DNA from: a virus
Direction: 5' to 3' (one strand)
Virus record (IMG/VR): IMGVR_UViG_3300020125_000051
Span: 17,008 to 81,007 of that record
Length of the DNA stretch: 64,000 nt
The position numbers and the translations under genes are program-made. The notes under the pieces are model-generated. The model searched no databases, was not told the origin of the DNA, and saw only the letters and a program-made list of their open reading frames with translations. Below are positions 44,222 to 60,080 of this stretch, piece by piece (position 1 is the first letter of the stretch; each line of letters begins with the position of its first letter).

Positions 44222-44353
44222 TGGGTTCCTCCTGAGGTACTTTTTCTAACCGCTCAGGTTCTACAGGTGCAGGAGTAGCATCTAGCTTTTCATAAACTGC
44301 AACTTGAACTACTTCTCCAATGTCACACATTTCATTCCTTTCTAAATATTATG

Positions 44354-44425
44354 TGGACCAGGCAGGAATCGAACCTACGACACGAAGATTAAGAGTCATC
44401 TGCTCTACCATTGAGCTACTGGTCC
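44354..44425 (-). tRNA. tRNA-Lys(CTT)
   Basis: Cloverleaf; anticodon loop CTCTTAA. Confidence 0.92.
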
Positions 44426-44486
44426 AATGTTAGCCTACTGCCATGATCATGTCAATAGCCTAACATACATTGATTAATTTAAATAC

Positions 44487-44975
44487 TTAAAACCATGTGT
44501 AGTAGTCCCAGCGCTTTTCATACATAATAAGCGATGGTACGTAATTAGCTTCAATTTGATGCTTCCACATTAGCATTCGGCCAGTTCGACCGTTACCATC
44601 AACAAATGGATGTATATGCTCAAACCTTACATGTTCATGAATTGGATCTAAGGTGAACCAATTCAACATGTGTGTCAGCCAATCATCCATTCTTTCTTGA
44701 ATTTCACGCCAATGTGGACACATTCTGCCACCAACAGTAACATTGTTGACACGGTATGATCCTGCGCCACCAGTTCTAGCCGGTAGTAGATTCTTCATGA
44801 TAAGACCATGAAGATGGAGAATCATTTCTCCGGTAAATGGCATTGATTGCTTAATAAGCCATTGCCATGCGACTAAGCTTTGTTCTATTTCTCTTGGATC
44901 TGTAACACTCTCGATTAAATTCGATTGCGTGATATGTTCACGCATATCGAACTCACTCATCATCGTCGTCGTCAT
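44487..44975 (-). CDS. Fic-domain protein
   Basis: Intact HPFVDGNGRTGR motif. Confidence 0.9.
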   Translation of the reverse strand: MTTTMMSEFDMREHITQSNLIESVTDPREIEQSLVAWQWLIKQSMPFTGEMILHLHGLIMKNLLPARTGGAGSYRVNNVTVGGRMCPHWREIQERMDDWLTHMLNWFTLDPIHEHVRFEHIHPFVDGNGRTGRMLMWKHQIEANYVPSLIMYEKRWDYYTWF

Positions 44976-45319
44976 CTGGATCCCAACCTAGTTCATCTTC
45001 GATTTCTTGTTTAGCTTCATAAAACTGTTCTTTGGCATAGATATCATCCATTTTAGATTGAACACGTATGGGTTCAATACCAAGTACTAGTCTTTCGTAG
45101 TTCATCTTAGATGGCTTACGACATCTACTACAAACCCACAGACCTGATGAAACGTCTAGCGTAAAACCATCTTGTTTCTGCCATACACCTCTGATGATAC
45201 AGTTACACCACGGGTGGATGTTCATTTCCAGTCTGTACACCATCAATAATGTCCAATTCTATTTTTGCCCAATAAGTTTTTGTAGTTCTAGTGTAATGAT
45301 CAAATCTACTTTCAACATG

Positions 45320-45392
45320 CACCCGTAACTGGATTCGAACCAGCAACCTCATCCTTAGAAGGGATTTGCTCTATCCATTGAGCTATACGGGC
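45320..45392 (-). tRNA. tRNA-Arg(TCT)
   Basis: Cloverleaf; loop CTTCTAA. Confidence 0.92.
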
Positions 45393-45539
45393 TTTTTATT
45401 TAGCATTGCAATTTGTTCTTTACGCAGTTTATTGTCTGGCTTATGACCTTTTGCATAACCATCACATTTGTTGCTACCAAGTTCATCTTTCCATTTAGTG
45501 CCATCCCACCAAATATCAATGGTACATTGCACACATTCT

Positions 45540-45848
45540 CTAGGTTTCTGTGTGCGTGACATTTTCAGGCAAACCTACTAATCTTCTCAATCGTCTAACT
45601 TCTTCAATCGAAAGTACATTTGGTATTACGTAACGACTATTTCTACACAATTCTTTACATTCAGCGCAACGACAACCGTGAGTTTTGTAACAAGTTAAAC
45701 TTGGATGGATGTGTTGTAACACCTTTGGCTCAGATTTTCCGAATTTTCGCTTTTCTCTTTTTGTCGAGGCTAATTTTTTACATTCTATACAACGACAACC
45801 ATGACTCTCATAACAAGTCACGCTTGGGTGTCTATGTGGAAGTCCCAT
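45540..45848 (-). CDS. Protein with two H....CY..HGCRC..C Zn motifs
   Basis: Internal duplication of the motif. Confidence 0.7.
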   Translation of the reverse strand: MGLPHRHPSVTCYESHGCRCIECKKLASTKREKRKFGKSEPKVLQHIHPSLTCYKTHGCRCAECKELCRNSRYVIPNVLSIEEVRRLRRLVGLPENVTHTET

Positions 45849-45996
45849 TTTTTGGTTCCCGTGCTCTCGGACGTGTCAAAATAATTCCGGCCCGCTCGCG
45901 CTTCCTAGCAGCCGTGTTGAGCGCGCGGCACGCGACACATCGGCAGCCATGTTTCTTATAGCATGTTTCACTAGGATGTTTGTGTTTTCTTGGCAC
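45832..45996 (-). CDS. Small CRC-motif Zn protein (GTG start just after tRNA-Leu)
   Basis: HPSETCYKKHGCRCVAC; the upstream part of the track ORF overlaps the tRNA. Confidence 0.65.
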   Translation of the reverse strand: MPRKHKHPSETCYKKHGCRCVACRALNTAARKRERAGIILTRPRAREPKNGTST

Positions 45997-45997
45997 G

Positions 45998-46070
45998 TAT
46001 GGATGATGGGAGTCGAACCCATAACTAACAGTTTTTGAAACTGTTTCCTCTTCCATTGGGATACATCCAT
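45998..46070 (-). tRNA. tRNA-Leu(CAA)
   Basis: Cloverleaf; loop TTCAAAA; short variable arm. Confidence 0.9.
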
Positions 46071-46345
46071 ATAACCAACAGACAGCTAGAATACGTAACG
46101 CATCCAACCCGGTGGCTGCCTGTTGGAGTATTCAATTTGTTTTACATCCAGACGAAGTCATTTGGGTCGAACATTTTTCCTCATCCTTTCTACTAATTTT
46201 TTGGTGGTGGGGACAGAGCCGACCTGATCACCTTCATTGTAGCTCAGACAGATACTCTCAACTAATAGCGCTATTTATTGAAAATAGAGCTGAACAGCCT
46301 ATGACACTACAATGTTATCCCCTTATTACATCGGCTAGGGCACCG

Positions 46346-46416
46346 CTCCATGACCTAGGTTCGAACTAAGACTACCGCATCCAGAGCGCAGCGTGCTACC
46401 ATTACACCATCATGGA
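46346..46416 (-). tRNA. tRNA-Gln(CTG)
   Basis: Cloverleaf; loop CTCTGGA. Confidence 0.9.
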
Positions 46417-46994
46417 ATATTTAGTTATTCTGGTTCATAGAAATCACATTCAGGATCGCCTGGATCACATTCGTGTCCACAATAATCACAAGCTACATCA
46501 TCTGCTTGGATGTGTCCATAGCCAGGTTCACGCTCCTGTGGTGCTTTGGGATTGACTGGCAATGGTGGACTCTGATTTAAAGTATTGTGCTTACAGATAC
46601 AACACTCTCGACACAAAGGCATACCCATGAGCATGTACTCTTCGTCTCTACAGATGTAGCAACTTACATAATAAACTTTGGGTTGTGAATAAATATTAGG
46701 TGATTCTAGCATCCAATATGCTGGATCGCTAGATTGCATTTTCATAGTACATCCAAATCTGTAATATCTGGAATATGTTTATTTGGCACAATGCCCTGTT
46801 CATGATGAATTATAGCAACTTCAACTAACTGTTTTAGAATTTGTACTTCATCCCATGGTAACTGCAACATCTTGGCATAACCCTTTTTGTCACTCCATAA
46901 TAAAGCATATACATTTGGGTTTCCAGCACGTTCAATTAAGTCTACACTTTTATTGCGAACTCTATCACTGAAGAGATTTGTTTGCTTATCCACG

Positions 46995-47067
46995 AGCCGA
47001 CAGGAGGAATCGAACCCCCGACATTCTCATTACAAGTGAGACACTCTTCCAACTGAGTTATGCCGGC
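46995..47067 (-). tRNA. tRNA-Thr(TGT)
   Basis: Cloverleaf; loop CTTGTAA. Confidence 0.92.
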
Positions 47068-47078
47068 ATATTAAGTTA

Positions 47079-47624
47079 TTATTCCATTGCTACAAGATAA
47101 TCCTTCGGCAAATTCCAACCTAGAAGTGCAAGCCGGCGAATGCCATTTTTAACCATACCACTTCCTTGACCATTCATTGGTACGTTAGCTTTGGCATCAA
47201 CTAAAATTGCACTAAACTTATTTTGTCCCTCGGACGTCATATATTGTACAGTATTGTGTAATACCACAACAATAGATGCACCTGAGATGGTCCAACGCTT
47301 AGTTGGCATTAACTCTTTACGATTATCTTCGTAATCATTAACATGAACATGTGGAGTTGGACAATGAATGTCACAACTGCGGCGATCAAATTTAGTAAGT
47401 GGTCTTTGCGATTTTGGCTCTACTTTTTGTCCTGTTAGAGTACAAAGACGATTTACTATTTCAAGTTGTCTAGTATCTACATATAAACTTACCTGTGGTG
47501 TTTTGCGTGCTGCGTGTGTCTTCTTGGTAATACCAGCCTTTACTTCTATTACGGCTGCAAACCAAGCAAGTTCACCAATTGTCAAGTTAGGATTTTCTAT
47601 TACTGTATTTTTTCTTATTGCCAT
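47079..47624 (-). CDS. LAGLIDADG-like protein, degenerate motif
   Basis: ELAWFAAVIEVKAGI resembles the LAGLIDADG helix and is followed by the typical beta/alpha pattern. Confidence 0.5.
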   Translation of the reverse strand: MAIRKNTVIENPNLTIGELAWFAAVIEVKAGITKKTHAARKTPQVSLYVDTRQLEIVNRLCTLTGQKVEPKSQRPLTKFDRRSCDIHCPTPHVHVNDYEDNRKELMPTKRWTISGASIVVVLHNTVQYMTSEGQNKFSAILVDAKANVPMNGQGSGMVKNGIRRLALLGWNLPKDYLVAME

Positions 47625-47625
47625 G

Positions 47626-47699
47626 TACCAGCGATGGGACTCGAACCCATAACCACCAATTTATAAGATTGGCTGCTCTAACCATTAGCATACGCTGGC
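47626..47699 (-). tRNA. tRNA-Ile(TAT)
   Basis: Cloverleaf; stem CCAAT/ATTGG, loop CTTATAA. Confidence 0.88.
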
Positions 47700-47721
47700 T
47701 CAGCCCTTGCGGGCCTTTGTG

Positions 47722-47796
47722 TTATTTAGTTGGTTTCGGTGGTGGTGGCGGCGGTGGTTTCGGTGGACGTGGCAATGGGTTGTCAATCGGTGTCAT
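47722..47796 (-). CDS. Proline-rich micropeptide, 24 aa (MTPIDNPLPRPPKPPPPPPPKPTK)
   Basis: Translated by hand; SD AGGA. Confidence 0.6.
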   Translation of the reverse strand: MTPIDNPLPRPPKPPPPPPPKPTK

Positions 47797-47801
47797 AATT
47801 C

Positions 47802-47894
47802 CTACTTAGTTGGTTTCGGTGAATTTGGTGCCGGTCTTGGATCTATTGGTTTAACTGGATCTCTCGGTGGATATGGTGGATTTGGATTTGTCAT
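47802..47894 (-). CDS. Proline-rich micropeptide, 30 aa (MTNPNPPYPPRDPVKPIDPRPAPNSPKPTK)
   Basis: Translated by hand; same PKPTK end as its neighbour. Confidence 0.6.
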   Translation of the reverse strand: MTNPNPPYPPRDPVKPIDPRPAPNSPKPTK

Positions 47895-47895
47895 G

Positions 47896-47966
47896 CTGAA
47901 CCACTAGGATTCGAACCTAGATTCATGGAACCAAAATCCATTGGCCTGCCGTTAGCCGATGGTTCA
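47896..47966 (-). tRNA. tRNA-Gln(TTG)
   Basis: Cloverleaf; loop TTTTGGT. Confidence 0.9.
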
Positions 47967-47977
47967 ATGCTATTGCG

Positions 47978-48050
47978 TGATCCATCTCGGGCTCGAACCG
48001 AGGACATGCGGATTAAAAGTCCGCCACTCTACCAACTGAGTTAATGGATC
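47978..48050 (-). tRNA. tRNA-Lys(TTT)
   Basis: Cloverleaf; loop CTTTTAA. Confidence 0.92.
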
Positions 48051-48058
48051 TCTCATTT

Positions 48059-49563
48059 TCATTTGTATTTCTTAGGAAGATAGGAAGTCATATTTACTTC
48101 CGATGCTATACGTACCCATTTATTATGGATAGCACGTAATTCACTTTCAGTAGCACGCGGTTCGTTGATATGTGCATCTAGAAAAAACTGCCAAATTTCA
48201 GGATAGTTTTTCCCAATGCACGCACCAGATTGCATGTTTGGCATTATGAACCTACTTTACTTCCATCATCTTGCCAATAAAATTCACCATTAACACCCAC
48301 TGGTCGATGAACACCACAGTGTACACAATAAGTGGCGCCATAGAAACCAGGATTACGCGCGTAAGTTTCCGCAATCGGTTGACTCATTCTTGTTTCAGTA
48401 CCACAGTACTCGTGGATATAAGTACGTCGTACTGGACGAACGAATCCTTTAGCTCTTTCTTCCTCAGAAAGAACCAAATAAATTTCTGCTTGTGGAATAG
48501 CTGGACCATCTAATGATTCAGCACCATGTGTGAGGCGCGGGTCATTAGGGTCTGAAGTTACATTACCCATCAGAATGCATCCCAAAGTGCAGAGTGACGA
48601 TGAGGGAAATTCTGGAAATCATAATCTTCTAATTCCTCAATAGGCATTTTTAGCATTTCACTTGCTGCTAAACGCCACCGAGTGCGATCTTTACCATTTG
48701 CTTTAGCGCGATATACTTGCTCACTCTTTGGACGACCATAGATACCACTAGTGTAGTAATGTTCTCTGGTGAAGTTAAATTCACACCAGTACTGTACACC
48801 ATCAAAATCACAAACACCCTTACGGTGATCGTGGTCTTCCACTCTCATCTGTGGGTTTTGCCGAAGCCTAACTTCCCACGGAGTAGTCTTATCGGTTTTA
48901 GACATGTTAGTTTGCACCAATCTGCAAACTGGACCATCCAGTTTACTATAACATGTCTTCTCCTCTCCTCATAAGCATCACCTGATACATGATACTCACA
49001 ATCATCTTTCCAACAAAGATTGTCGGATCCATATAGTTTAGAGCTAGCTTCACAACTATTTGCTATTGGTACTGAATAAACTTCTGGCTCAAACTTAAGC
49101 ATAACACGACTGGTCCGATTTGACAAGCCGTATATAACGTTACCAAGCCACTCAAATCGGGATAATTGGGACATAACGCCACAGCACGGACAAAAGCGAT
49201 GCCAAATAAACTCATATATTGGCATCCACCACGGTACTCTAACAATCGCTAGTTTGTCACCATCTTTATGTGACAAGACATGAACTTGTAACATATGTCC
49301 TCCTCGGACCTAGATACTGTTCATGTCTGTTTCCTTTCTGCTTGATTCGGAGTTAACTTCATACACCATAAACAAAAATCATGTTCTGGACGACCACATT
49401 GATCTGCTTCTGGACTATGACCGAAGAAGAAACAAATAGTACTTTGAATTCGATCATAGATCCAACCCAAAGAGTCGACTGTTCTAGTAGATTTTTCAAA
49501 TTGATCATATCTATGTTCAAACCAGAACATGATTTTTTGTTGAAATCTTTCTTTCTTATTCAC
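48059..49563 (-). other. Run of small hypothetical ORFs (48059, 48244, 48570, 48845, 49321)
   Basis: Abutting - strand ORFs, several Cys/His-rich. Confidence 0.55.
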
Positions 49564-49564
49564 G

Positions 49565-49635
49565 CTCCACCACCAGGATTCGAACCTAGATCAACCGATT
49601 AACAGTCGGTCGCACTGCCCTTGTGCTATGGTGGA
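49565..49635 (-). tRNA. tRNA-Asn(GTT)
   Basis: Cloverleaf; loop CTGTTAA. Confidence 0.92.
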
Positions 49636-49642
49636 ATGATCT

Positions 49643-49978
49643 TTATATTTTGAAGAAACTTTTTATCTTTACGATAATGTCATATAATATTTCTTGGTTT
49701 TGAACTTGAAATTTAATTAGTTTTATTACGCGCCACCAAATTACAAAAGCAATGGCGCCAATTACTATTGTCCAACCTTTAATAGCATCCATTCGTTCGA
49801 GGTGTGGAGCTACAAGTGAATAAATGAATGCTACCGCAAGCGCTAACATGAAGAAGAGTACATGCTTACCCATAGAATCACGCCATGGTTTTAACAGCGC
49901 GTACAATATGCAAAACGTTACGAATCCAGCAACAACAATCCAAACCAGAATCATCAACACAATCTCAGGGAGAGCCAT
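49643..49978 (-). CDS. Putative holin-like protein with three TM helices
   Basis: Three hydrophobic helices; Y.....PW....G..V pattern. Confidence 0.6.
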   Translation of the reverse strand: MALPEIVLMILVWIVVAGFVTFCILYALLKPWRDSMGKHVLFFMLALAVAFIYSLVAPHLERMDAIKGWTIVIGAIAFVIWWRVIKLIKFQVQNQEILYDIIVKIKSFFKI

Positions 49979-50210
49979 GGTTATTCCTTCTAAGCATGCT
50001 GTCGTTCATGGCTGCTGTAAAACTATCTACGCGGTACTTCACACGTCGAGCGCTCGCTACAGCTTTTGCTAGTTCTGGTAATTGTTGCTTTGTCTCAGCC
50101 AATTTTGTTTGGGCATTTTGCAATTTCTCATCTACTGAATCCTCATCAGTAAATGATGCTGCGGATCTCTCGGCTATCTTACGTTTTGTTAACCAATTCC
50201 ATAGCTTCAT
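49965..50210 (-). CDS. Small coiled-coil protein of lysis-cassette type
   Basis: Coupled between two membrane-protein genes. Confidence 0.55.
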   Translation of the reverse strand: MKLWNWLTKRKIAERSAASFTDEDSVDEKLQNAQTKLAETKQQLPELAKAVASARRVKYRVDSFTAAMNDSMLRRNNHGSP

Positions 50211-50521
50211 TATAAAACCTTCTCAACCGTTTGTGGCGGTAAGGCAGCTATCATTCCTTGCGCCCGGGAGACCTCTAGAATCTGTTCTATTTTTGAAGCT
50301 AGTAAATCATTTCGTTCATCTTGCAGTTTGTTAATTGTTTCAAGCTTATCGATGTATTTGTCTTTGTCTTGCAAAGACCTTTCATATAAAGCAACTATCT
50401 TATCTACTGCTGATTTTGTATATATTGCACCACTTCGAAGACCCAGGAATAAAAGAGCCAGAAATGCACCAGCCATGCCAAATTGAAGCCATGGCACAAT
50501 GTCGATGCCATTCGGTCCCAT
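50210..50521 (-). CDS. Single-TM coiled-coil membrane protein
   Basis: N-terminal TM helix, G.IYT, then coiled coil. Confidence 0.6.
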   Translation of the reverse strand: MGPNGIDIVPWLQFGMAGAFLALLFLGLRSGAIYTKSAVDKIVALYERSLQDKDKYIDKLETINKLQDERNDLLASKIEQILEVSRAQGMIAALPPQTVEKVL

Positions 50522-50591
50522 TTTTGCCTCATCTTGAATTGGTGCTCAACCGACCCCTCAGAGATTACGTCATAAAGGGCCGGCGAGACAA

Positions 50592-50849
50592 CTAATCAGC
50601 ACCATTTAATACCTCATAGCACTTCTGACAATCAAAATACACATCGTTGTCAGGATTTTGTGCATCTTCTAATGTGATGGCACGATCGCCCATGACCGCA
50701 TCACCACAGAAGCTGTTCATTGTTTCTAAGTTAATAACATGTGTAGTTGGTTCATTAATTTCTGTCATGTTATTCCTTAATTGAGGTTCTAATTGTCCAG
50801 GAGTTTCCCATGGTAATGCATATCTCCATGCTGGGTTCCTAGTAATCAC
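50592..50849 (-). CDS. Hypothetical Zn-binding protein
   Basis: H...CG...FDCQKC pattern, similar to 18241-18417. Confidence 0.55.
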   Translation of the reverse strand: MITRNPAWRYALPWETPGQLEPQLRNNMTEINEPTTHVINLETMNSFCGDAVMGDRAITLEDAQNPDNDVYFDCQKCYEVLNGAD

Positions 50850-50850
50850 G

Positions 50851-50922
50851 GTTCCACAGTAGGATTCGAACCTACACTATCACCGTTACCGGGCTGCCTC
50901 TACCAATTGGGCTATATGGAAC
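50851..50922 (-). ncRNA. tRNA-like RNA lacking an anticodon loop (CCG-GTAA-CGG tetraloop hairpin)
   Basis: Intact acceptor, D and T arms; truncated anticodon arm. Confidence 0.75.
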
Positions 50923-51060
50923 TTTATAGGATATGGTTACTGTTCGTTTCGAGTTGCTTTCAGTGTATACCCTAGCTGACCCTGACGAACCTGACCCATT
51001 TACTCATCTACCATCGTGGGATTTAAATCGTCGACTCCCACTCCCTCACCATATCTTACG

Positions 51061-51133
51061 CGATACCGACGGGATTCGAACCCGCATAATCCACCGTGAC
51101 AGGGTGGTGCACTGACCATTATGCTACGGTACC
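51061..51133 (-). tRNA. tRNA-Asp(GTC)
   Basis: Cloverleaf; loop CTGTCAC. Confidence 0.92.
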
Positions 51134-51477
51134 TTATTTAGTTATTTGCGAATATCTATCTTATGAGAACGCAATCTGGCAACTACTGAGTTTCTAGTCC
51201 AAACTATGCCAGTTGAATTAAAATCATCTATTATTTCATTAATGACTGCGTTACGCACATTAGCTTCAATACGTGTATGATAAGCAGCTAGTACAGGTTC
51301 CATGGCTTCGATCATTTGTCCACCGACACCTGCAAAGAAATCCGCCATAGCAGATGCTTCTTCGGGAGTAAGTGTGCCATTCATGTATACACTTGCTAGG
51401 AACTTATTACGAATTGCATCGTGCGATACAACAGTCATCTTAGTTCTTCCTGTGGTGTTTATTATTGATGGTACATG

Positions 51478-51550
51478 TGGAGAATATCGGATTCGAACCG
51501 ATCACCTCTGCCTTGCAAAAGCAGCGCTCTACCAAATGAGCTAATCCCCC
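51478..51550 (-). tRNA. tRNA-Ala(TGC)
   Basis: Cloverleaf; loop TTTGCAA; G3-U70 pair. Confidence 0.92.
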
Positions 51551-51644
51551 AATGACATATTGGGTGTGGTCCCATACCAGAATTCTAAACCCCTATCCAC
51601 AAAAGGGGTACTCTTGGCAGCGGTGCATATGTCAGACACCTCAG

Positions 51645-51725
51645 TGGGCATGGTTGGTATCGAACCAACTTTGCGTTATACGCATCGGTTTTACAGACCG
51701 ATCCCTGGACCTCCAGGACACACCC
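51645..51725 (-). tRNA. tRNA-Tyr(GTA), atypical short D loop
   Basis: Loop CTGTAAA; long variable arm; D arm CCTGG-AGGT-CCAGG. Confidence 0.8.
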
Positions 51726-52186
51726 ATATTCAATTATTATTCTCTTGATTTATTATTTGGATGTTCTGGACATTTATATTGATGTTCGAATCCGCGACAA
51801 CCTAAGCAATCATTGAACCAAGCTTCAATGTATCCATACCATCCACCTTTAGATCTAGATATGGTAGCATCTATCCTTTTAGCATTAGTGAATTCATCTG
51901 ATCTGATAACAACAGATACAATCGAAGACATTTGTAAGAATGTTTCGGTTGGTTCATCGCTGTACCATTCGCCCCATGTTCCATCTTTTATTATTCTTGT
52001 AGCCATGTCGGGATATGCCTCAGTTCCCATCTAGCATTGGCTGATGCTCTCTTACAATCATCACATCTACAACCATATCTATACTTAGTTGTAGTTCCAT
52101 GTGCAGGATCTCCATATTCTTTTTGTTCTAGCTTAGTTCTCATTGGCATTGTAATAATCTCCAATGCTATACATATATACAATTTT

Positions 52187-52264
52187 TGGTCGGGATAGTA
52201 GGATTTGAACCTACGGCCCCTGCGTCCCAAACGCAGTGCTCGTACCAAACTGAGCTATATCCCG
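52187..52264 (-). tRNA. tRNA-Pro(TGG), CCA encoded
   Basis: Cloverleaf; loop TTTGGGA. Confidence 0.93.
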
Positions 52265-52462
52265 TTGACTGGTGCAATGTTAGATAACGGAGGCGTAGGC
52301 ACATTAGGTGACTAGACTAATGCACGGCGTTTCTATTTGCATCTAAACATTGCGGTGATTGTAGTTGGTAATGGCTTCTGCTGTCGAGCATTATTAACAG
52401 TACCTACTACAACACTTTTACCAGTTGTTGGCTACAAACCCATGCATTGATTTATAGCTACG

Positions 52463-52534
52463 TAGTCTCGGAGGGAGTCGAGCCCTCTTCACAGCGGTGA
52501 AAGCGCTGTATCCTAACCCATAGACGACGAGACC
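52463..52534 (-). tRNA. tRNA-Glu(TTC)
   Basis: Cloverleaf; loop CTTTCAC. Confidence 0.88.
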
Positions 52535-52687
52535 TTATTTAATTGGTGATAGGTTGGTAGTTTCCTTAACACTACCGGTGCCACATTTTGAGCACATATC
52601 CGCAACTCAATATGTAGTCCACCACTGCCCTTTGTGTACTGTATTTATGCGGCCCATACAGCCTTACTGGATAGGCTACCCCTATCG

Positions 52688-52761
52688 TTGGACACCACAG
52701 GATCGAACTGTGCACCTCTACGTTATCGGCGTAGCGCTCTAACCAAATGAGCTAGTGTCCA
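52688..52761 (-). tRNA. tRNA-Ile(GAT)
   Basis: Cloverleaf; loop CCGATAA. Confidence 0.9.
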
Positions 52762-52864
52762 ATAACCCTCACCCTAGACAACTGGCATTGCTAGAGACTC
52801 TTGGGCTACGCACCTGCCAGGGCACTTGCATCGCAACGAGATTAACGAGTCCCGCCCAATACCG

Positions 52865-52935
52865 TACAGACAGAGAGGATCGAACTCTCGCTAGTAGATT
52901 GAGAATCTACCGGTCTGCCATTAACCTATGCCTGC
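52865..52935 (-). tRNA. tRNA-Glu(CTC)
   Basis: Cloverleaf; loop TTCTCAA. Confidence 0.88.
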
Positions 52936-53103
52936 TCACTACCAACTAACTTAATTGATAATACTTCATTTTCTTGGGCCATGAAAATACAAACTCCACC
53001 AGCGATGAACCTAAACCAACCACCTAATTGCTTATATTCATCAGCAATTACTATAGTAGGGATAGATGGTGTCTTAACATATCTTACATCATATTTATTC
53101 ATG

Positions 53104-53176
53104 TGCTTCCGGTGAGATTCGAACTCACACTTAAAGGATTTTAAGTCCTTCGCCTCTGCCATTGGGCTACGAAAGC
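53104..53176 (-). tRNA. tRNA-Leu(TAA)
   Basis: Cloverleaf; loop CTTAAAA. Confidence 0.92.
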
Positions 53177-53230
53177 TAGGTGACTATCCTTTACGGCGAT
53201 AGTCGTTCCGCTTCCTGTCGGGAAGTTATA

Positions 53231-54820
53231 TTAGATTCTACCTGCGCTAAACGCAGAAACCAATTTAGGCAAGTTTGAATCTGCGCCCGCTACGTCTAGC
53301 ATACCACTATCTGTGGGATTTGCAATAGAAAATCGCGTTGGAGTACATGCAACAACAATCAACTTTGCGTCATGACCTATAAACCTGCGATAATCCTTCA
53401 ATGCAACATGAGGATGTACATTACCAGCCCATGTTTCACTATCAGTCATTACCACAAAGGTATCAACGTCGATGCCACGTTCCTTGGCATATACCATTGG
53501 CAGTGAACAATCTGTACTACCAAAATTGCGATCCTTAGTTCTTTGCATTACTTCAGCTAGTGACATATTAGGTGCTATTCCCAAATCAACAAAATTCTGG
53601 GAGAATCCCATGATTTGGTAGAATGGCTCAGTTCTGGCAATCGTCATTGACATAGCTGCGCAAACTTCGGCAGCAGTTAAGTCAATGCCAGCCATCGACT
53701 GAGACATAGAACCAGAAACATCAAGAGCTATCATGGTACGCTTGTTAGCTGGTTCTACGTACTTAAAGGCACGATAGAAACCATCATCAAGTGCATTTAC
53801 GATAACAGGATTAGTTGCCCAATTCTTTTCATAGGTGTGACTCCATGCGTACTTACGATCACGCTGACCACGCTGATGCACAGTAGATGCTAGCAAATAC
53901 TGGAAAGGATGCAAGCGCGTACGCTGAATCATTTCCTCATCTACAAGCTTATCTGCATATGCACGAGCAAAGTGCATGTCCTCGAAAGCACCAATACGAG
54001 CAAGTCTAGTGATATTACGTACTAGAGCCTGACCGTTAAGCTGTCCATTACCGAAAAGCATCTTCCATACATCAGGAACCTTTAGGAATTGAGTAGGAAT
54101 GGCTTCCCAGGGAAGATTTGGATAACGCTCTAGTGCTGAAAGCACATGTCCTATCATGGTAGATGCTTGCATCCGCTTGAATCCAGCAATTATCAGCGGA
54201 TCTACATTAACTTCATTATCAAAGCCATGCACGAAATCGCCAATTGCCTTATTCAATCCCACAGGATGTGAAAGCATGAGCAAACCCTTGTGGGTCCAGC
54301 CGTTCCGTTGACGGTACTTTACCACCTGATACGCAAGGCTGTCAACATCCTTGCTAATGTACCAATCGGCAATCGCGCGCCGCTTTGCTCGTCCCCAACC
54401 ACCTAGAAGTTTGATATATTCAGCAAACTCGAATAGATGAGTTGACGTGCGACACACCTTAGCTAAGTCCTGCGAAGATTTTGCCTTGCCAAAGGTAAAC
54501 AGCGCGGCCAAACAAAAAATTGCAGGACTATTGCGGAAAGCACGGCCAGACTGTGAGATTTCAACTACAGTATCACGAACTAACTGCTCATCACGCTCAA
54601 TTAGTTCGCGTAGAAAGTTGATGTTATCCTTAGTAAGCTTCTGCTCGTCAACATAGTATGTTCCACCTTCGGTACCCAAAATAAGAAAACGCTCTAGGCG
54701 AGTCTTATCTGTTACCTCAAACGTAAAACCACCAGCATTGTTAGCAACCTGCCGAGGATCTTCTTGCTCTGACTGTGGTATTGGTGTTCCTAGTGTTCTT
54801 GAAAATACGTTGTTTGCCAT
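53231..54820 (-). CDS. rsr: Ro60/Rsr RNA-binding protein (TROVE + vWA)
   Basis: QV.NNAGGF.F, RL.RFLILG.EGGTYY, GGWGR..RRAI..WY, KYRQR.GW.H..L...SHP, AL.RN, DVSGSM MIDAS, TDCSLPM and TDSETW.G..HP motifs. Confidence 0.96.
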   Translation of the reverse strand: MANNVFSRTLGTPIPQSEQEDPRQVANNAGGFTFEVTDKTRLERFLILGTEGGTYYVDEQKLTKDNINFLRELIERDEQLVRDTVVEISQSGRAFRNSPAIFCLAALFTFGKAKSSQDLAKVCRTSTHLFEFAEYIKLLGGWGRAKRRAIADWYISKDVDSLAYQVVKYRQRNGWTHKGLLMLSHPVGLNKAIGDFVHGFDNEVNVDPLIIAGFKRMQASTMIGHVLSALERYPNLPWEAIPTQFLKVPDVWKMLFGNGQLNGQALVRNITRLARIGAFEDMHFARAYADKLVDEEMIQRTRLHPFQYLLASTVHQRGQRDRKYAWSHTYEKNWATNPVIVNALDDGFYRAFKYVEPANKRTMIALDVSGSMSQSMAGIDLTAAEVCAAMSMTIARTEPFYQIMGFSQNFVDLGIAPNMSLAEVMQRTKDRNFGSTDCSLPMVYAKERGIDVDTFVVMTDSETWAGNVHPHVALKDYRRFIGHDAKLIVVACTPTRFSIANPTDSGMLDVAGADSNLPKLVSAFSAGRI

Positions 54821-54824
54821 TTTT

Positions 54825-54850
54825 GAACGACCCCTTTCAAGGGATATATT
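54825..54850 (-). promoter_or_regulatory. Permuted Ro-type helix covering the rsr ribosome-binding site
   Basis: - strand AATATATCCCT-TGAA-AGGGGTCGTTC-AAAA-ATG contains both conserved Y-stem strands (TATATCC, GGGTCG). Confidence 0.6.
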
Positions 54851-54863
54851 GTGTTACATTACG

Positions 54864-54932
54864 TGGCATGGGTAGGATTCGAACCTACTTCCCTAGGACT
54901 GCGTAGCTTTTCCAATTAAGCCAATCCATGCC
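54864..54932 (-). ncRNA. tRNA-like RNA with defective anticodon arm
   Basis: GGCATGG/CCATGCC acceptor, D arm, perfect T arm; only 17 nt between D and T arms. Confidence 0.7.
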
Positions 54933-54935
54933 AAG

Positions 54936-55024
54936 TGGGGACACATGGAGTCGAACCATGTCAACTCAGACTGATCAATCTGAGGGCTAGTTTTGATCAG
55001 TATATACTAGCGTCCAAAGTCCCC
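54936..55024 (-). ncRNA. tRNA-like RNA with enlarged D arm and complementary D/anticodon loops
   Basis: GGGGAC/GTCCCC acceptor, GCTAGT/ACTAGC, CTCAGA/TCTGAG and CATGG-TTCGACT-CCATG. Confidence 0.7.
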
Positions 55025-55030
55025 TTGAAT

Positions 55031-55161
55031 GTTGGATATAGTTTGATAATCGGGGTTTTTGATAGCTCTTGGGCTCCGAATCGAACGGAGACCTTATACT
55101 TTTCAAGTATATATGCTACCTTTTACACTACCCTAGATAACCGACTATCGATCGACCCAAC
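55031..55161 (-). ncRNA. Y-RNA-like Y1: Ro-type stem carrying a complete tRNA-Phe-like cloverleaf
   Basis: GTTGGGTCGA..GTCGGTTATC...CCGATTATC..TATATCCAAC. Confidence 0.8.
55066..55137 (-). tRNA. tRNA-Phe(GAA)-like cloverleaf embedded in Y1
   Basis: TCTAGGG/CCCAAGA acceptor with one mismatch, TATAC-TTGAAAA-GTATA, CTCCG-TTCGATT-CGGAG. Confidence 0.7.
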
Positions 55162-55170
55162 AAAAATCTA

Positions 55171-56397
55171 TTAACCTTCTGCCATGATCTGATTATCTAT
55201 GTTTGCACCAGATGAATCTAGCACATTTCCAGAAATTGATAATCCGCCGCAGCCATCAGTGTGCTTAGCTGGAAAACCAGTACCAGGGAAAATAGGTCCA
55301 AATCTGTTGTTTAACAACGAACCGCGGTTCTGAGCACAGTAAACTGTGTACGAACCACCAACAAGTAAGTTGTTAGTAATTGTTAAGTTAGACTGAATTC
55401 CATGCCCAAAGTTTGGATCATTTGGGGGTCCAGAAGTAAATGTAGCATTGTCATCAGTCATTAAAACTGTGTTATGAATATACTGAATGTTGCTTTCGGA
55501 AGCAGAGCGCGCTGGCCAAACCTGAATACCATCAGTATGTGGATCTGGCGCTACACTATCACCCTTGAACATTCCATGTATATAAGAATCACGAATCGTG
55601 AAAACTGAGTTTGCGTCGCCACCGTTTTCGCAATTGCTAATATCGGCGCCAGTTACAAACAAAAATTCATCACCAAAAGCAGTACCACCATGCATACTAG
55701 GACCACAGAAAACAGACACATGATCCATAGTAGTTACGCCGCCACTATCGGCTGCACCAGCGGTTTCTACAACATAACCTGGAACATTGCAATTAACTGC
55801 AACATTCCTAAATGTTACATTTTGAGCTGTAATTACAGGACATCCAACAATAGTAACGTCATGAATTACTGCACCAGCAGTACCAAAGGTTAATGAGCCA
55901 CTATATGCTGGTAGACTTCCATGCGCGCCTGCCGTTGTGGCATCAGGGAAACCACAGGAACCAGGATTAGCCGCGCAATTGTTACCAGAAGGTGGTGGAC
56001 TCGTAGTAGTCGGAGGTGGAGTTGTCGTTGGTGGTGGATTAGTGGTAGTAGGTGGTGGAGTAGTAGTAGGTGGAACAGTCACCGTTGGTGATGGTGACGG
56101 AGAACCTGTTACTGTAGAACTAGGTGTTGGTGTTGGTGTTGCGGTTAGTCCTGCAATAACCTTTTGCTTGATTATAATACATTGTTGTGCTCTTGTCCGC
56201 TCAGCGGATGTAGTTGCAAATTGTAGGTCTAACTGACATTGTCTTAATAATCGTTGTGCATCGGTTAAATCTGAACTAGCATCCGCTGACGCTCGTTCAT
56301 TATTTGTAAAGATAACTAATGCACCAGTAATTAATGCCATAACTGCAAACCAAATTGCAATTTTCTGCCTTGTTGAACTTATGTGCGTTTCGAGCAT
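55171..56397 (-). CDS. Secreted protein: signal peptide, P/T linker, parallel beta-helix-like domain
   Basis: Hydrophobic N-terminus ending ASA; PPTTT repeats; PDATTAG, I.DSYIH, HTDGIQ and NN.L.GG.Y motifs. Confidence 0.75.
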   Translation of the reverse strand: MLETHISSTRQKIAIWFAVMALITGALVIFTNNERASADASSDLTDAQRLLRQCQLDLQFATTSAERTRAQQCIIIKQKVIAGLTATPTPTPSSTVTGSPSPSPTVTVPPTTTPPPTTTNPPPTTTPPPTTTSPPPSGNNCAANPGSCGFPDATTAGAHGSLPAYSGSLTFGTAGAVIHDVTIVGCPVITAQNVTFRNVAVNCNVPGYVVETAGAADSGGVTTMDHVSVFCGPSMHGGTAFGDEFLFVTGADISNCENGGDANSVFTIRDSYIHGMFKGDSVAPDPHTDGIQVWPARSASESNIQYIHNTVLMTDDNATFTSGPPNDPNFGHGIQSNLTITNNLLVGGSYTVYCAQNRGSLLNNRFGPIFPGTGFPAKHTDGCGGLSISGNVLDSSGANIDNQIMAEG

Positions 56398-56465
56398 TGT
56401 ACCTCCACTAGAAGAACTAACCGGAGATCAATGTCCAAATTATCACTTCCATTCATTTTAGCACG

Positions 56466-56548
56466 CGGAAGCTAAAGGAGTCGAACCCTTAGGTATTACC
56501 CTAGCCAGATTTTCAAGACCTGTTGCCCACCACTGAGCGCTAGCTTCC
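56466..56548 (-). tRNA. tRNA-Ser(TGA)
   Basis: Loop CTTGAAA; long variable arm. Confidence 0.9.
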
Positions 56549-56553
56549 TTGAG

Positions 56554-56625
56554 ATATCGGATATATTTGCGTTAATTGGATGGTCTGCAGAAACAGTTGA
56601 TAACCAATTAGCTTTGACCCGATAT
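56554..56625 (-). ncRNA. Y-RNA-like Y2 (minimal)
   Basis: ATATCGGGTCAAAG..ATTGGTTATC..CCAATTA..TATATCCGATAT. Confidence 0.75.
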
Positions 56626-56630
56626 TTAAA

Positions 56631-56825
56631 TTAGAGTAGTTCTCCTGCTAACTTTGTCATTGCTGATTTTGCTTCATGCAGTTTAACACATAGCGGAGAA
56701 TATAGAACTTTACCTGAACAATGTTGGGCAGCGTTTGCTTCTGAGTTTCTTTCCTCACGTACTATTGCCCAAATTAGTGCTTCATGTACCTTGTCAATTT
56801 CACGAATGATATCTGCTCTGTCCAA
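56631..56825 (-). CDS. Hypothetical protein
   Basis: Abuts the NlpC/P60 gene. Confidence 0.5.
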   Translation of the reverse strand: MDRADIIREIDKVHEALIWAIVREERNSEANAAQHCSGKVLYSPLCVKLHEAKSAMTKLAGELL

Positions 56826-57590
56826 TTATACAAACCTCTTAGCGGCATAGAATGAATACAAGTTGTTAATGATTACACCTTGCTTGTATCCGGCAGCTTC
56901 GACAATCTTACCATTACCAATATAGACAAACACATGACCAATGAACGGCCAAACTATATCTCCAGGTTGTAGATTGTTGCGAGACACCCGAACACCTTGG
57001 TTAGAATAAAGGATCTGTGCATCTTGATGAGGCACATTAATTCCAACCTGAGCTAGTGACATCATCACAAGACCAGAACAATCAAATGCATATGGTCCAG
57101 CAGCAGCCCAAGAATAACGCTTGCCAACCTGAGCTAATGCGTAGTTGACAATTCTTTGCGCTCTTGAAGTGTTAGCTGATGCTACTGTGGTGGTTGCCTT
57201 AATTACTGGCTTAGTTACTGGTGCCGTGGCAGGTACCGAACTAACCACAGGTGCAGTAGGTACAAAAATTTGCTGACCTACACCAAGCTGATTGCAGTTG
57301 GCAAGTTTATTATACTGACAAATACCTGGCCAATACCCAGGATTCGAATAGACAGCGTTGGAAATACCAAAAAGACTTCCATAAGGAGAAGGATACTTTT
57401 GAGTAGTAATCCAAGTGCCAATTGGCTTCGCTACGGCCACCGATTCAACAGCTTTTGCTGTTTCTGTTGCTGCCACTACCTTCTGGTCGACTATTGTCGT
57501 CGCTCCCGCAGGAGTTGCAATGGCAAAAACGCTAATACTTATGAGTAGGCTGCCTAATGAAGCTTTTATGGCAGACTTGGATCTAGACAT
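56826..57590 (-). CDS. Secreted LysM-like + NlpC/P60 peptidoglycan endopeptidase
   Basis: Signal peptide; LysM-like SLFGIS...W..I...N....L.VGQ.I.VP; Y.W...GP..FDCSGL, LQPGD and HV..Y.G.G motifs. Confidence 0.9.
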   Translation of the reverse strand: MSRSKSAIKASLGSLLISISVFAIATPAGATTIVDQKVVAATETAKAVESVAVAKPIGTWITTQKYPSPYGSLFGISNAVYSNPGYWPGICQYNKLANCNQLGVGQQIFVPTAPVVSSVPATAPVTKPVIKATTTVASANTSRAQRIVNYALAQVGKRYSWAAAGPYAFDCSGLVMMSLAQVGINVPHQDAQILYSNQGVRVSRNNLQPGDIVWPFIGHVFVYIGNGKIVEAAGYKQGVIINNLYSFYAAKRFV

Positions 57591-57764
57591 TTATATCCTA
57601 TCTCTTTGCGAAAACAGACAGGATGAGCTAGTTAGAGTTTAAAGTCTGTTTTCGCCCCTGTTTGAATATTAAATTGTATTTTAGATGCATGTTAGCTTTG
57701 TTTCACCACCCTTTTAGAGGCAAGTATACGGATCTCCCGTATCACCATACGCTAACATGCAACG

Positions 57765-57836
57765 TGCCAAGAGCAGGACTCGAACCTGCGCATCATGTTC
57801 TTCAGACATGCGCTCTGCCAACTGAGCTATCGAGGC
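57765..57836 (-). tRNA. tRNA-Phe(GAA)
   Basis: Loop CTGAAGA; two acceptor-stem mismatches. Confidence 0.82.
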
Positions 57837-57840
57837 AATG

Positions 57841-57900
57841 ATAAGGATATATTTTTGTCATCGTTATTTGCTGTGATAACCGATGAACTTTGACCCTTAT
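57841..57900 (-). ncRNA. Y-RNA-like Y3 (minimal, 60 nt)
   Basis: ATAAGGGTCAAAG..ATCGGTTATC..CGATGA..TATATCCTTAT. Confidence 0.72.
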
Positions 57901-57908
57901 CTCAAAAC

Positions 57909-58313
57909 TTAAATTCCGTCTAGAATGTCTGGTGCGGCTGTTTCTTCTGCTGTTGGTGCTGTCGTCGCTGGTGGCTCTGGCGATGCTGCCTCAACGGCAG
58001 TGTCGAGTGTAGTAAGTTGATTGCTCGCATCAGTTAGTGCAGTCTCGGCATCACTGAGTGCTGAAAGTGCACCAGTAACATCTGGCGAAGCCTGGCTAAG
58101 TAGCCGAGTAACATCCTTAACTAATTCAATCGTGTTTTTGAGCACTGTCTGAGTAGCTGTAGAAACTTCAGCTACCTTAGCAGTTAGTTCGTCGACGCCT
58201 GCCATTACCTGATCCACCTTTGCTGGTAGTTCTGGATCACTTACCACGGTAGTGTGGAAGTGTATGGTAGTAACGGATGATGGGATTCCATCTAGATGGA
58301 AGAAAACATCCAT
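57909..58313 (-). CDS. Acidic coiled-coil protein
   Basis: Heptad-like A/L/V pattern. Confidence 0.6.
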   Translation of the reverse strand: MDVFFHLDGIPSSVTTIHFHTTVVSDPELPAKVDQVMAGVDELTAKVAEVSTATQTVLKNTIELVKDVTRLLSQASPDVTGALSALSDAETALTDASNQLTTLDTAVEAASPEPPATTAPTAEETAAPDILDGI

Positions 58314-58336
58314 TTGACCAACTTTCTTTAGTGCAG

Positions 58337-58409
58337 AGCCACAGGTAGGAATTGAACCTACGAAAACAGGTTTTGCAGACCTGCGCCTTTACCATTCGGC
58401 CACAGTGGC
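58337..58409 (-). tRNA. tRNA-Cys(GCA)
   Basis: Loop CTGCAAA; U73. Confidence 0.9.
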
Positions 58410-58410
58410 G

Positions 58411-58487
58411 TGGGGTGTATGACGGGATTTGAACCCGCGAATGACTAGAGTCACATTCTAGCTCCTGATGCCTCCGGATCATACACC
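58411..58487 (-). tRNA. tRNA-His(GTG), G-1:C73 and CCA encoded
   Basis: Loop ATGTGAC. Confidence 0.85.
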
Positions 58488-58489
58488 AG

Positions 58490-59642: not shown

Positions 59643-59643
59643 T

Positions 59644-60057: not shown

Positions 60058-60080
60058 AATCACCACCCTATTATAATAAG

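Follow-up and report, generated by a model that had tools for sequence, protein, structure and literature searches.

Can a phage make its messages by cutting them out from between its tRNAs? The question is raised by an uncultured soil phage in which several protein-coding ORFs appear to begin at the very nucleotide where a tRNA gene ends. The initial annotation had proposed that almost every tRNA gene in this region encodes only the first C of CCA, that in at least seven cases an ATG or GTG follows this C immediately, with a further short ORF at 45318, and that tRNA 3' processing by RNase Z, cutting after the discriminator, switches on translation of the downstream gene as a leaderless mRNA. 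We therefore examined the whole stretch of DNA concerned, 64,000 nucleotides and hereafter called the window, as well as related phage sequences.

ARAGORN found 29 tRNA genes, all on the minus strand. Rfam's tRNA model ended one base before ARAGORN's end at each junction checked, indicating that ARAGORN's last base is C74. All 29 genes encode N73-C74; in 28 of them the C is followed by a non-C base, whereas tRNA-Pro(tgg) has a full CCA. The eight start sites of the initial annotation were all present, so that its observation was confirmed, and two more were found (ATG 51476 and GTG 56464). The relevant features, all on the minus strand, are as follows.

44353..62504 (-), array of 29 tRNA genes interspersed with small ORFs, all on one strand.
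47625..47699 (-), tRNA-Ile(tat), ending ...GGTAC (A73, C74).
47079..47624 (-), 181-aa ORF with its ATG directly after C74 of tRNA-Ile(tat), the strongest case; it fills the whole gap, with its stop 11 nt before tRNA-Thr; codon score +81; the only alternative start is a TTG at codon 14, without a Shine-Dalgarno; the database gene call has the same length.
46994..47067 (-), tRNA-Thr(tgt), ending ...GGCTC (T73, C74).
46742..46993 (-), 83-aa ORF with its GTG directly after C74 of tRNA-Thr; its TGA overlaps the ATG of the next gene (ATGA at 46745); the first 41 codons score +18.7, with no other start before codon 42; the database gene call has the same length.
46425..46745 (-), 106-aa Cys-rich gene coupled to the preceding ORF; its homologue in the related contig L026 itself abuts tRNA-Thr at C74+1.
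53103..53176 (-), tRNA with anticodon TAA (Leu), 74 nt.
52926..53102 (-), 58-aa ORF with its ATG directly after C74; its last 10 nt, including the stop codon, overlap the 5' end of tRNA-Glu(ctc); the first 40 codons score +21.5.
47895..47966 (-), tRNA-Gln(ttg).
47802..47894 (-), 30-codon proline-rich ORF with its ATG directly after C74; codon score +16.7, though composition may bias this.
45997..46070 (-), tRNA with anticodon CAA (Leu), 74 nt.
45832..45996 (-), 54-aa G+C-rich ORF with its GTG directly after C74; it carries an HPSxTCYxxHGCRCxxC motif from codon 7, shared with the next ORF (45540-45848), and has no alternative start before the motif; weak PHROG hits to HTH and HNH-associated families; codon usage atypical at -7.
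49564..49635 (-), tRNA-Asn(gtt).
49321..49563 (-), 80-aa ORF with its GTG directly after C74; this start is less certain, as the first 11 codons are ambiguous and an ATG at codon 12 (49530) is possible, although it has no Shine-Dalgarno.
50850..50921 (-), degenerate tRNA-like element, called Leu(taa), 72 nt, by ARAGORN; its Rfam tRNA score of 36 bits is the lowest in the array; conserved in the related contig L025.
50592..50849 (-), 85-aa ORF with its GTG directly after C74; most family members are about 60 aa and begin at the position of the internal ATG 50768, which has an AAGGA Shine-Dalgarno; one 86-aa homologue shares the 27-aa N-terminal extension.
45259..45318 (-), 19-codon ORF of doubtful coding status with its ATG directly after C74 of tRNA-Arg(tct) (45319-45392); in L026 and L003 the same tRNA is followed at once by ATG ORFs of 42 and at least 33 codons.
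51462..51476 (-), ATG directly after tRNA-Ala, opening only 4 codons, probably chance or a relic; the real gene follows at +38 with a Shine-Dalgarno.
56453..56464 (-), GTG directly after tRNA-Ser(tga), opening only 3 codons, probably chance; the next gene, at 56397, has a GGAGG Shine-Dalgarno.

To determine whether this arrangement exceeds chance, we counted start codons at each offset from the tRNA ends. RTG was found at position +1 after C74 at 10 of 29 tRNAs, against about 1.2 expected from a background frequency of 0.042 (binomial P = 1.7e-7), and no other offset from -20 to +60 exceeded 5. RTG followed by an open frame of 30 codons or more was found at 7 of 29 tRNAs, against a background of 0.0126 per position (P = 6e-8); these seven ORFs have 30-181 codons. 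Spacing across related phages, which had been named beforehand as a test, gave the same picture in close relatives. Four related IMG/VR contigs, L025, L026, L027 and L030, keep the same tRNA order and show the junction at 19 of 51 tRNAs (16 of 44 in L025-L027 and 3 of 7 in L030), always with ORFs of 40-124 codons. The pooled count was 23 of 73 with an ORF of 30 codons or more (P = 6e-26). The excess is, however, confined to this clade: more distant actinophage tRNA arrays linked to a Ro60 gene, two of them from cultured Streptomyces phages, were at chance level (5 of 105, P = 0.46), as was a random IMG/VR sample (9 of 55). Across the window and L025-L027, start offsets were bimodal: offset 0 occurred 22 times, each offset from 1 to 12 at most once, and offsets of 13 nt or more usually carried a strong Shine-Dalgarno (often -7 to -16 kcal/mol).

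We next asked if these are the true starts. Codon usage was coding from codon 1, with no alternative start for 13-41 codons, and was of the coding type in 20 of 23 abutting ORFs. The Ile(tat)-abutting orthologues in L025 and L030 share residues 1-12, with synonymous changes at codons 2, 4, 10 and 12, whereas the Thr-abutting orthologues swap GTG for ATG and carry an in-frame codon indel. The Gln(ttg)-abutting ORFs of L026 and L027 align from residue 1. Furthermore, family member P0008 starts at the ATG abutting tRNA-Leu(caa) in L024/L027, and its N-terminus matches that of the family. Independent database gene calls for the Ile(tat)- and Thr-abutting ORFs of the window have the same lengths. 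These findings showed that the starts are real, though two of the seven window cases, GTG 50849 and GTG 49563, are weaker because of their plausible internal starts.

No other initiation signal was found at these junctions. Shine-Dalgarno energies were weak, and none of the window starts has a usable Shine-Dalgarno except inside the paired acceptor stem of tRNA-Asn. A TANNNT -10 hexamer at the right distance was present at 2 of 26 abutting junctions against 5 of 54 others, and a sigma-70 scan was at the level of shuffled sequence. The 5' ends look like leaderless initiation regions: the first 36 nt fold at -1.9 kcal/mol, against -4.2 for internal windows (P = 1.5e-5), codons 2-7 are 49% A, and 9 of the 22 starts at offset 0 are GTG, a codon that works well for leaderless mRNAs in mycobacteria and Streptomyces (PMC9031893).

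The initial interpretation was partly supported: genes starting exactly at N73-C-RTG and expressed as processing-generated leaderless mRNAs remains the best-supported reading, but the site of the cut needs changing. A cut after the discriminator, as in classical RNase Z, would leave a one-base C leader. Yet published dRNA-seq maps in two actinobacteria place the 5'-monophosphate end of tRNA trailers just after C74, which in this phage would leave a truly leaderless 5'-P-RUG. In Streptomyces coelicolor, Table S4 of PMC4681348 lists such ends right after the first C following the discriminator for most CCA-less and CCA-encoding tRNAs, whereas E. coli cuts downstream of CCA. Propionibacterium acnes, which has no obvious RNase Z homologue, also cuts between the two Cs (PMC3848588). 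Streptomyces phages pSt2308 and Phredrick likewise encode only C74. Exactness would matter, since in Caulobacter each extra 5' base roughly halves leaderless translation (PMC8459731). The host is probably an actinobacterium, though this is only inferred: 350 of 355 tblastn hits of Ro60 were in actinophages, the best being 57% to Streptomyces phages, and the best hits of the terminase, portal and DNA polymerase were also actinophages. On the other hand, G+C is 42% and no WhiB gene was found.

We considered the possibility that the mechanism is the same but that the cut falls between N73 and C74, as the initial annotation had it. RNase Z cuts after N73 in well-studied bacteria, the junction N73|C-R-U-G fits the RN|CNU preference of mycobacterial RNase E shown in M. 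smegmatis (PMC10641625), and a few S. coelicolor tRNAs show a second cut before the C, for example CTA|c|t. However, most S. coelicolor trailer ends map after C74, and one extra 5' base also inhibits leaderless translation in E. coli. C74 is moreover kept in nearly every tRNA gene of the clade's contigs, and in none of them does the start codon sit at position 74, which is hard to explain if the cut were at N73, because the CCA-adding enzyme can add all three bases. We regard this version as possible but doubtful. It appears less likely that ribosomes start internally, without a Shine-Dalgarno, on unprocessed polycistronic RNA, the abutment reflecting only tight packing. The array is indeed very compact, with several ORFs ending 4-11 nt before the next tRNA and one overlapping it, and Shine-Dalgarno-independent initiation on leadered mRNAs occurs in actinobacteria. 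Yet packing alone predicts a spread of small offsets, which was not observed; the start codon would sit against a stably folded acceptor stem, and genes of the same array that are not at offset 0 usually keep a strong Shine-Dalgarno.

It is also unlikely that the junction is mainly a footprint of cassette exchange, by recombination or insertion at tRNA borders, not selected for expression. In favor of this idea, tRNA order is conserved among the four genomes while the ORFs behind the same tRNA (Ile-tat, Thr, Leu-taa, Pro) are not homologous, the 83-aa ORF of the window is an extra one lying between tRNA-Thr and a gene that abuts tRNA-Thr in L026, and one abutting ORF has weak similarity to HNH-associated motifs. 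No recognisable homing endonuclease or integrase was, however, present among the abutting ORFs, and exchange through flanking tRNA homology would not by itself put a start codon at position 75; this idea is compatible with the main explanation rather than an alternative to it. Two further readings are very unlikely. Primary leaderless transcripts from promoters inside the tRNA genes are conceivable, as promoter-defined leaderless mRNAs are common in actinobacteria (PMC3848588, PMC4681348), but the -10 hexamer is no more frequent at abutting junctions than at other tRNAs. That the ORFs are not translated genes could be argued because most are ORFans and three of the ten RTGs open fewer than 20 codons, close to the roughly 1.2 expected by chance, but coding-type codon usage, synonymous-only divergence and in-frame indels between orthologues, a conserved protein family and stop-start overlaps with downstream genes argue against it.

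The closest known arrangement is the tRNA punctuation of animal mitochondrial transcripts (Ojala, Montoya and Attardi 1981; reviewed in PMC4394434 and PMC6056719), in which, as here, tRNA genes directly flank ORFs on one strand and some ORFs are bounded by tRNAs on both sides; in this phage too, tRNA excision would release mRNAs that begin at or next to the start codon and are translated without a Shine-Dalgarno. By contrast, a bacteriophage would rely on bacterial enzymes, only about a third of the tRNAs would be used in this way, the start follows C74 and not the discriminator, stop codons are complete with no need for polyadenylation to finish them, and many units are multi-gene with translational coupling. 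The actinobacterial cut after C74 (PMC4681348, PMC3848588), made by an unidentified enzyme, concerns the same gene architecture (N73-C74 encoded, CA added later), and the mapped trailer end at position 75 is exactly where the phage start codons sit, but those papers describe tRNA maturation only and do not report the trailer as a translatable leaderless mRNA. Promoter-defined leaderless mRNAs of actinobacteria (PMC4633059, PMC3848588, PMC4681348) and lambda cI share the AUG or GUG at the very 5' end, the lack of a Shine-Dalgarno and a weakly structured, A-rich start region, but their 5' end is a triphosphate made by transcription initiation, whereas here it would be a monophosphate made by RNA cutting. 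In E. coli, the endonuclease MazF is likewise reported to create leaderless mRNAs after transcription (Vesper et al. 2011; discussed and disputed in PMC9031893); MazF leaves a 5'-hydroxyl, acts under stress and the model is contested, whereas the cut here would be a constitutive tRNA-maturation step leaving a 5'-phosphate. The degenerate element at 50850-50921 abuts an open frame, as do the t-elements, tRNA-like structures reported to define mRNA ends in plant mitochondria (Forner et al. 2007), though it may or may not be cut and the gene behind it may use its internal start with a Shine-Dalgarno. Finally, the identical N73-C-ATG geometry is present in the cultured Streptomyces phage Phredrick (OR553903), in which annotators called gene 122 after tRNA-Phe and gene 132 after tRNA-Arg(tcg); there it is rare (2 of 24 tRNAs) and is not commented on in the papers that could be searched. 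We found no paper describing such an arrangement.

Taken together, we favor, with moderate confidence, the following explanation. The array would be transcribed as long precursors, and the host, probably an actinobacterium, would cut each tRNA's 3' end endonucleolytically just after C74, the CCA-adding enzyme then adding C75 and A76. Our analysis establishes the exact geometry, its excess over chance, the reality of the starts, the absence of Shine-Dalgarno and promoter signals and the recurrence in relatives; the cut after C74 and efficient AUG/GUG leaderless translation in actinobacteria are taken from the literature, while co-transcription, cutting at this site in this host and translation of the 5'-monophosphate product are inferred without RNA evidence. 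As far as we could find, translation of processed 5'-monophosphate leaderless RNA has not been shown in actinobacteria, and for the 58-aa ORF at 53102, whose stop lies inside the next tRNA, full processing would give a message without a stop codon. In this view, the downstream fragment begins with a 5'-monophosphate directly on AUG or GUG and is a leaderless mRNA that ribosomes can translate without a Shine-Dalgarno. At least five genes in the window, and probably seven, would be expressed in this way, as would about 19 in the four related contigs, the genes behind them often being translationally coupled. Where one ORF fills the gap between two tRNAs, RNase P cutting at the next tRNA would also set the 3' end of the message, giving a mitochondrion-like punctuation.

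The phage has a complete 81,007-bp IMG/VR genome with direct terminal repeats, of which bases 17008-81007 were analyzed, and a G+C content of about 42%. It occurs nearly clonally in many soil metagenomes. Only soil-metagenome DNA contigs were found to contain it and no RNA dataset was listed for it. A comparison of four sequencing runs showed almost no differences in the ORFs, so that no variation was available for a test of selection. ARAGORN found 29 tRNA genes, confirmed with Rfam, all on the minus strand between 44353 and 62504. Several other features of this array and of the rest of the window are the following.
53231-54820, minus strand: Ro60/TROVE RNA-binding protein (Pfam TROVE plus the Ro60 vWA domain), encoded in the middle of the tRNA array, as in Streptomyces and Mycobacterium phages; Rfam found no Y RNA nearby.
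55171-56397, minus strand: 408-aa protein inside the array without a Pfam or PHROG hit, placed by a protein atlas nearest to right-handed beta-helix proteins, mostly from Actinomycetota, which is a lead only.
45997-46070, 50850-50921, 53103-53176 and 58489-58562, minus strand: the four tRNAs with leucine anticodons (CAA, TAA, TAA, TAG), all only 72-74 nt long and lacking the long variable arm of normal bacterial tRNA-Leu, whereas the Ser and Tyr tRNAs of the array are 82-84 nt.
29089-31419, minus strand: family A DNA polymerase with an N-terminal uracil-DNA-glycosylase-superfamily domain ahead of the 3'-5' exonuclease domain.

The Ro60 sequence gave 350 of 355 tblastn hits in actinophages, the best (57%) being to Streptomyces phages, whose own Ro60 gene also lies in a tRNA array. 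Terminase, portal and DNA polymerase also had their best hits in actinophages, and the tRNA genes have the C74-only architecture of Streptomyces phages. An actinobacterial host, which would translate leaderless mRNAs efficiently, is therefore likely but not proven; the G+C content is 42% and no WhiB gene was found. No CCA-adding enzyme was found in the phage either.

The initial annotation had proposed that ORFs start exactly at N73-C-RTG behind tRNA genes, and this observation was confirmed. Rfam's tRNA model ends at the discriminator and ARAGORN's end is one base further at each junction checked, which identifies the last base called by ARAGORN as C74. In 28 of the 29 genes, N73-C is followed by a non-C base, so that C74 is encoded while C75 and A76 are not; only tRNA-Pro(tgg) has a full CCA. 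ATG or GTG follows C74 directly at 10 of the 29 tRNAs, i.e. the eight listed in the initial annotation plus ATG 51476 and GTG 56464. No other offset from -20 to +60 has more than five RTGs and, with a background RTG frequency of 0.042, P = 1.7e-7. Seven of the ten open 30-181 codons, an event that has a frequency of 0.0126 per position in the minus-strand gene block (P = 6e-8). The three short frames (19, 4 and 3 codons) are close to the roughly 1.2 RTGs expected by chance.

We next assessed whether these are real gene starts. A codon-usage log-odds model trained on the long ORFs of the phage scored the abutting ORFs as coding in frame.
Codon evidence and nearest alternative start for three ORFs abutting a tRNA.
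tRNA-Ile(tat), ATG 47624: 181 aa; codon score +81 overall; nearest alternative start TTG at codon 14, without a Shine-Dalgarno.
tRNA-Thr, GTG 46993: 83 aa; first 41 codons +18.7; no alternative start before codon 42.
tRNA-Leu(taa), ATG 53102: 58 aa; first 40 codons +21.5; no alternative start before codon 41.

Five of the seven RTGs are the first start codon after an in-frame stop, and the TGA of the Thr ORF overlaps the ATG of the next gene. Public gene calls for the 181-aa and 83-aa proteins have the same lengths. These two proteins have no relatives among cultured phages, or in a set of 5.8 billion proteins beyond their own records, and an AlphaFold2 model of the 181-aa ORF had a pLDDT of 33, which is unusable. 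The starts lack a Shine-Dalgarno: duplex energies ran from 0.1 to -3.5 kcal/mol, against a median of -5.8 for the long ORFs of the phage, the exception being tRNA-Asn, where the match lies in the paired acceptor stem. Two cases are weaker. For the ORF behind the tRNA-like element (GTG 50849), most family members are about 60 aa long and begin at the position of the internal ATG 50768, which has an AAGGA Shine-Dalgarno; a single 86-aa homologue (P0003), which is not in IMG/VR, shares the 27-residue N-terminal extension. The first 11 codons of the Asn ORF are uninformative. The Leu(caa) ORF has an atypical, G+C-rich codon usage, but its conserved HPSxTCYxxHGCRC motif starts at codon 7 with no other start before it. 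Two further features concern the ORFs behind tRNA-Leu(caa) and tRNA-Gln(ttg).
45540-45996, minus strand: two adjacent small ORFs carrying three copies of an HPSxTCYxxHGCRCxxC motif; the first ORF is much more G+C-rich than the phage, which suggests recent acquisition from a high-G+C actinophage or host.
47722-47894, minus strand: two consecutive proline-rich mini-ORFs (30 and about 24 codons) following tRNA-Gln(ttg); a similar 26-codon proline-rich frame starts with GTG directly after tRNA-Val in Streptomyces phage pSt2308 (L020, near 15437-15514).

To extend these findings, we turned to related phages. Relatives identified through Ro60 were too distant. Their arrays also encode only C74, but RTG at C74+1 is at chance level, with 1 of 53 in relatives L002-L006, 2 of 28 in Streptomyces phage pSt2308 and 2 of 24 in Streptomyces phage Phredrick. 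The family of the 85-aa ORF that starts at GTG 50849, and a conserved non-coding motif, led to four closer contigs (L025, L026, L027 and L030), which keep the tRNA order of the window.
tRNAs with RTG at C74+1 in the four closer relatives.
L025: 7 of 16.
L026 (a complete 75.8-kb phage): 7 of 22.
L027: 2 of 6.
L030: 3 of 7.

Every one of these 19 (of 51 tRNAs) opens 40-124 codons. When the window was pooled with L025-L027, leaving out L030, 23 of 73 tRNAs had an abutting ORF of 30 codons or more (P = 6e-26). In the same four sequences, the offsets of the first start opening at least 35 codons were bimodal: offset 0 occurred 22 times (13 ATG and 9 GTG) and each offset from 1 to 12 at most once, whereas offsets of 13 nt or more usually had a strong Shine-Dalgarno, often -7 to -16 kcal/mol.

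Comparison of orthologues confirmed the starts. The Ile(tat)-abutting ORFs of L025 and L030 share residues 1-12, while codons 2, 4, 10 and 12 differ synonymously (CGT to AGA at codon 2). The Thr-abutting orthologues swap GTG for ATG and differ by one whole codon at position 4, and the Gln(ttg)-abutting ORFs of L026 and L027 align from residue 1 at 38% identity. P0008, a member of the family of the 85-aa ORF, starts at the ATG abutting tRNA-Leu(caa) in contigs L024/L027, and its N-terminus lines up with those of members that have their own starts. In contrast, ORFs behind the same tRNA (Ile-tat, Thr, Leu-taa, Pro) are mostly unrelated between phages, and the gene that abuts tRNA-Thr in L026 is, in the window, the second, coupled gene behind the 83-aa abutting ORF. 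Of 24 abutting ORFs, six fill the whole gap to the next tRNA, with stops lying 4-11 nt before it or, for the 58-aa ORF of the window, 10 nt inside tRNA-Glu(ctc) (52926-52935, minus strand), where RNase P cutting would remove the stop codon; the others head multi-gene cassettes.

The arrays also contain two recurring elements behind tRNAs.
46196-46344, minus strand, with copies at 10719-10860 of L025 and 16302-16436 of L026, and also in L030 and L031: conserved non-coding element of about 135 nt directly behind a tRNA, with the invariant core GGGATAAC...GTGTCATAGGCTGT; the L025 copy contains a T-arm-like GGGGTTCAAATCCTCCCC.
About 60800-60839, minus strand, and after tRNA-Trp and tRNA-Ile(gat) in L002-L006 and after tRNA-Ile(gat) in L021: recurring motif of the form GGGYCGA...ATCGGTTATCT, possibly a hairpin; the 32-codon frame that it opens in the window is probably not a gene.
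The first element could be a Y-RNA-like partner of Ro60, though a three-sequence consensus fold gave only weak support. It also occurs in a 119-kb phage contig that has a single tRNA; G004, a contig found through the conserved non-coding motif, has only one tRNA and adds nothing on spacing.

We considered the possibility that the abutting starts reflect internal promoters or a sequence bias at tRNA ends. A TANNNT -10 hexamer at the right distance was found at 2 of 26 abutting junctions and at 5 of 54 others, and internal promoters are therefore unlikely. Scans for sigma-70 promoters and for terminators gave counts close to those of shuffled sequence. The reading of RTG as a general tRNA-processing signal was rejected. 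Relatives prefer T or G at position 75 without TG following, and in a random IMG/VR sample of 55 unrelated tRNAs reading N73-C-A-T the next base was G in only 9, indicating that no general sequence bias creates ATG there. The first 36 nt of the abutting ORFs are less structured than internal windows (-1.9 against -4.2 kcal/mol, P = 1.5e-5), and codons 2-7 are 49% A.

The initial annotation, in proposing that tRNA 3' processing generates leaderless mRNAs, assumed that RNase Z cuts after the discriminator, which would leave a one-base C leader; published 5'-end maps fit the geometry better. In S. coelicolor, Table S4 of Romero et al. 2014 lists 5'-monophosphate trailer ends right after the first C that follows the discriminator for most CCA-less tRNAs (for example GCTc/gc, GTAC/ag and CGAc/tc, the slash marking the cut), and between the two Cs for most CCA-encoding ones, while E. 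coli is cut downstream of CCA (PMC4681348). Lin et al. 2013 observed the same cut between the Cs in P. acnes, which has no obvious RNase Z, and left the enzyme open (PMC3848588). A cut after C74 would leave 5'-P-RUG, and only in that case would the start codon be the first base of the RNA. M. smegmatis RNase E, however, prefers RN/CNU (PMC10641625), a motif that N73/C-R-U-G fits, and a cut before C74 cannot be excluded. In Caulobacter each extra 5' base roughly halves leaderless translation and in E. coli one base already inhibits it (PMC8459731), which would explain why the spacing is exact, and why C74 is kept while the start is never placed at position 74. GUG works well for leaderless mRNAs in mycobacteria and Streptomyces (PMC9031893), which fits the 9 GTG among the 22 starts at offset 0. 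The position of the starts and their spacing rest on the sequence comparisons made here, whereas co-transcription of tRNAs and ORFs, which are all on one strand, the cut in this host (supported only by the maps from S. coelicolor and P. acnes) and translation of the monophosphate product are all inferred.

The closest system is mitochondrial tRNA punctuation, from which the present arrangement differs by its presumed reliance on bacterial enzymes, a start after C74, complete stop codons, use at only about a third of the tRNAs and the presence of multi-gene coupled cassettes. Literature searches on tRNA punctuation in phages, on tRNase Z with leaderless mRNAs and on actinobacteriophage tRNA with leaderless mRNAs found no description of this arrangement. 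The annotators of the cultured Streptomyces phage Phredrick did call two CDSs directly after tRNAs (genes 122 and 132, which abut tRNA-Phe and tRNA-Arg(tcg)), without comment in the literature that we could search. What is added here is a clade-wide, statistically sharp case with comparative proof of the starts, and a match between the spacing and an experimentally mapped actinobacterial cut site.

A further, tentative possibility is that in this phage clade the conserved tRNA scaffold acts as a set of portable expression sockets, any ORF recombined in directly behind C74 becoming a leaderless mRNA once the host matures the tRNA. Unrelated accessory genes would then be swapped in and out at exactly C74/RTG, and their translation would be switched on by, and timed with, tRNA 3' processing. 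This would be a bacterial-virus counterpart of mitochondrial punctuation, and a natural demonstration that processed 5'-monophosphate leaderless mRNAs are translated.

In practice, gene callers and annotators should accept starts that abut tRNAs, and tRNA-ORF fusions could serve as compact expression parts for Streptomyces or Mycobacterium. If processing does generate these messages, a routine tRNA-maturation cut doubles as a translation switch in bacteria, providing a constitutive route to leaderless mRNAs made after transcription, which so far has been proposed only for the disputed MazF case. It would explain why actinophage tRNA genes keep C74 and would point to the still unidentified actinobacterial nuclease that cuts after C74. 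It would also show how phages express tightly packed, fast-changing accessory genes without promoters or ribosome-binding sites.
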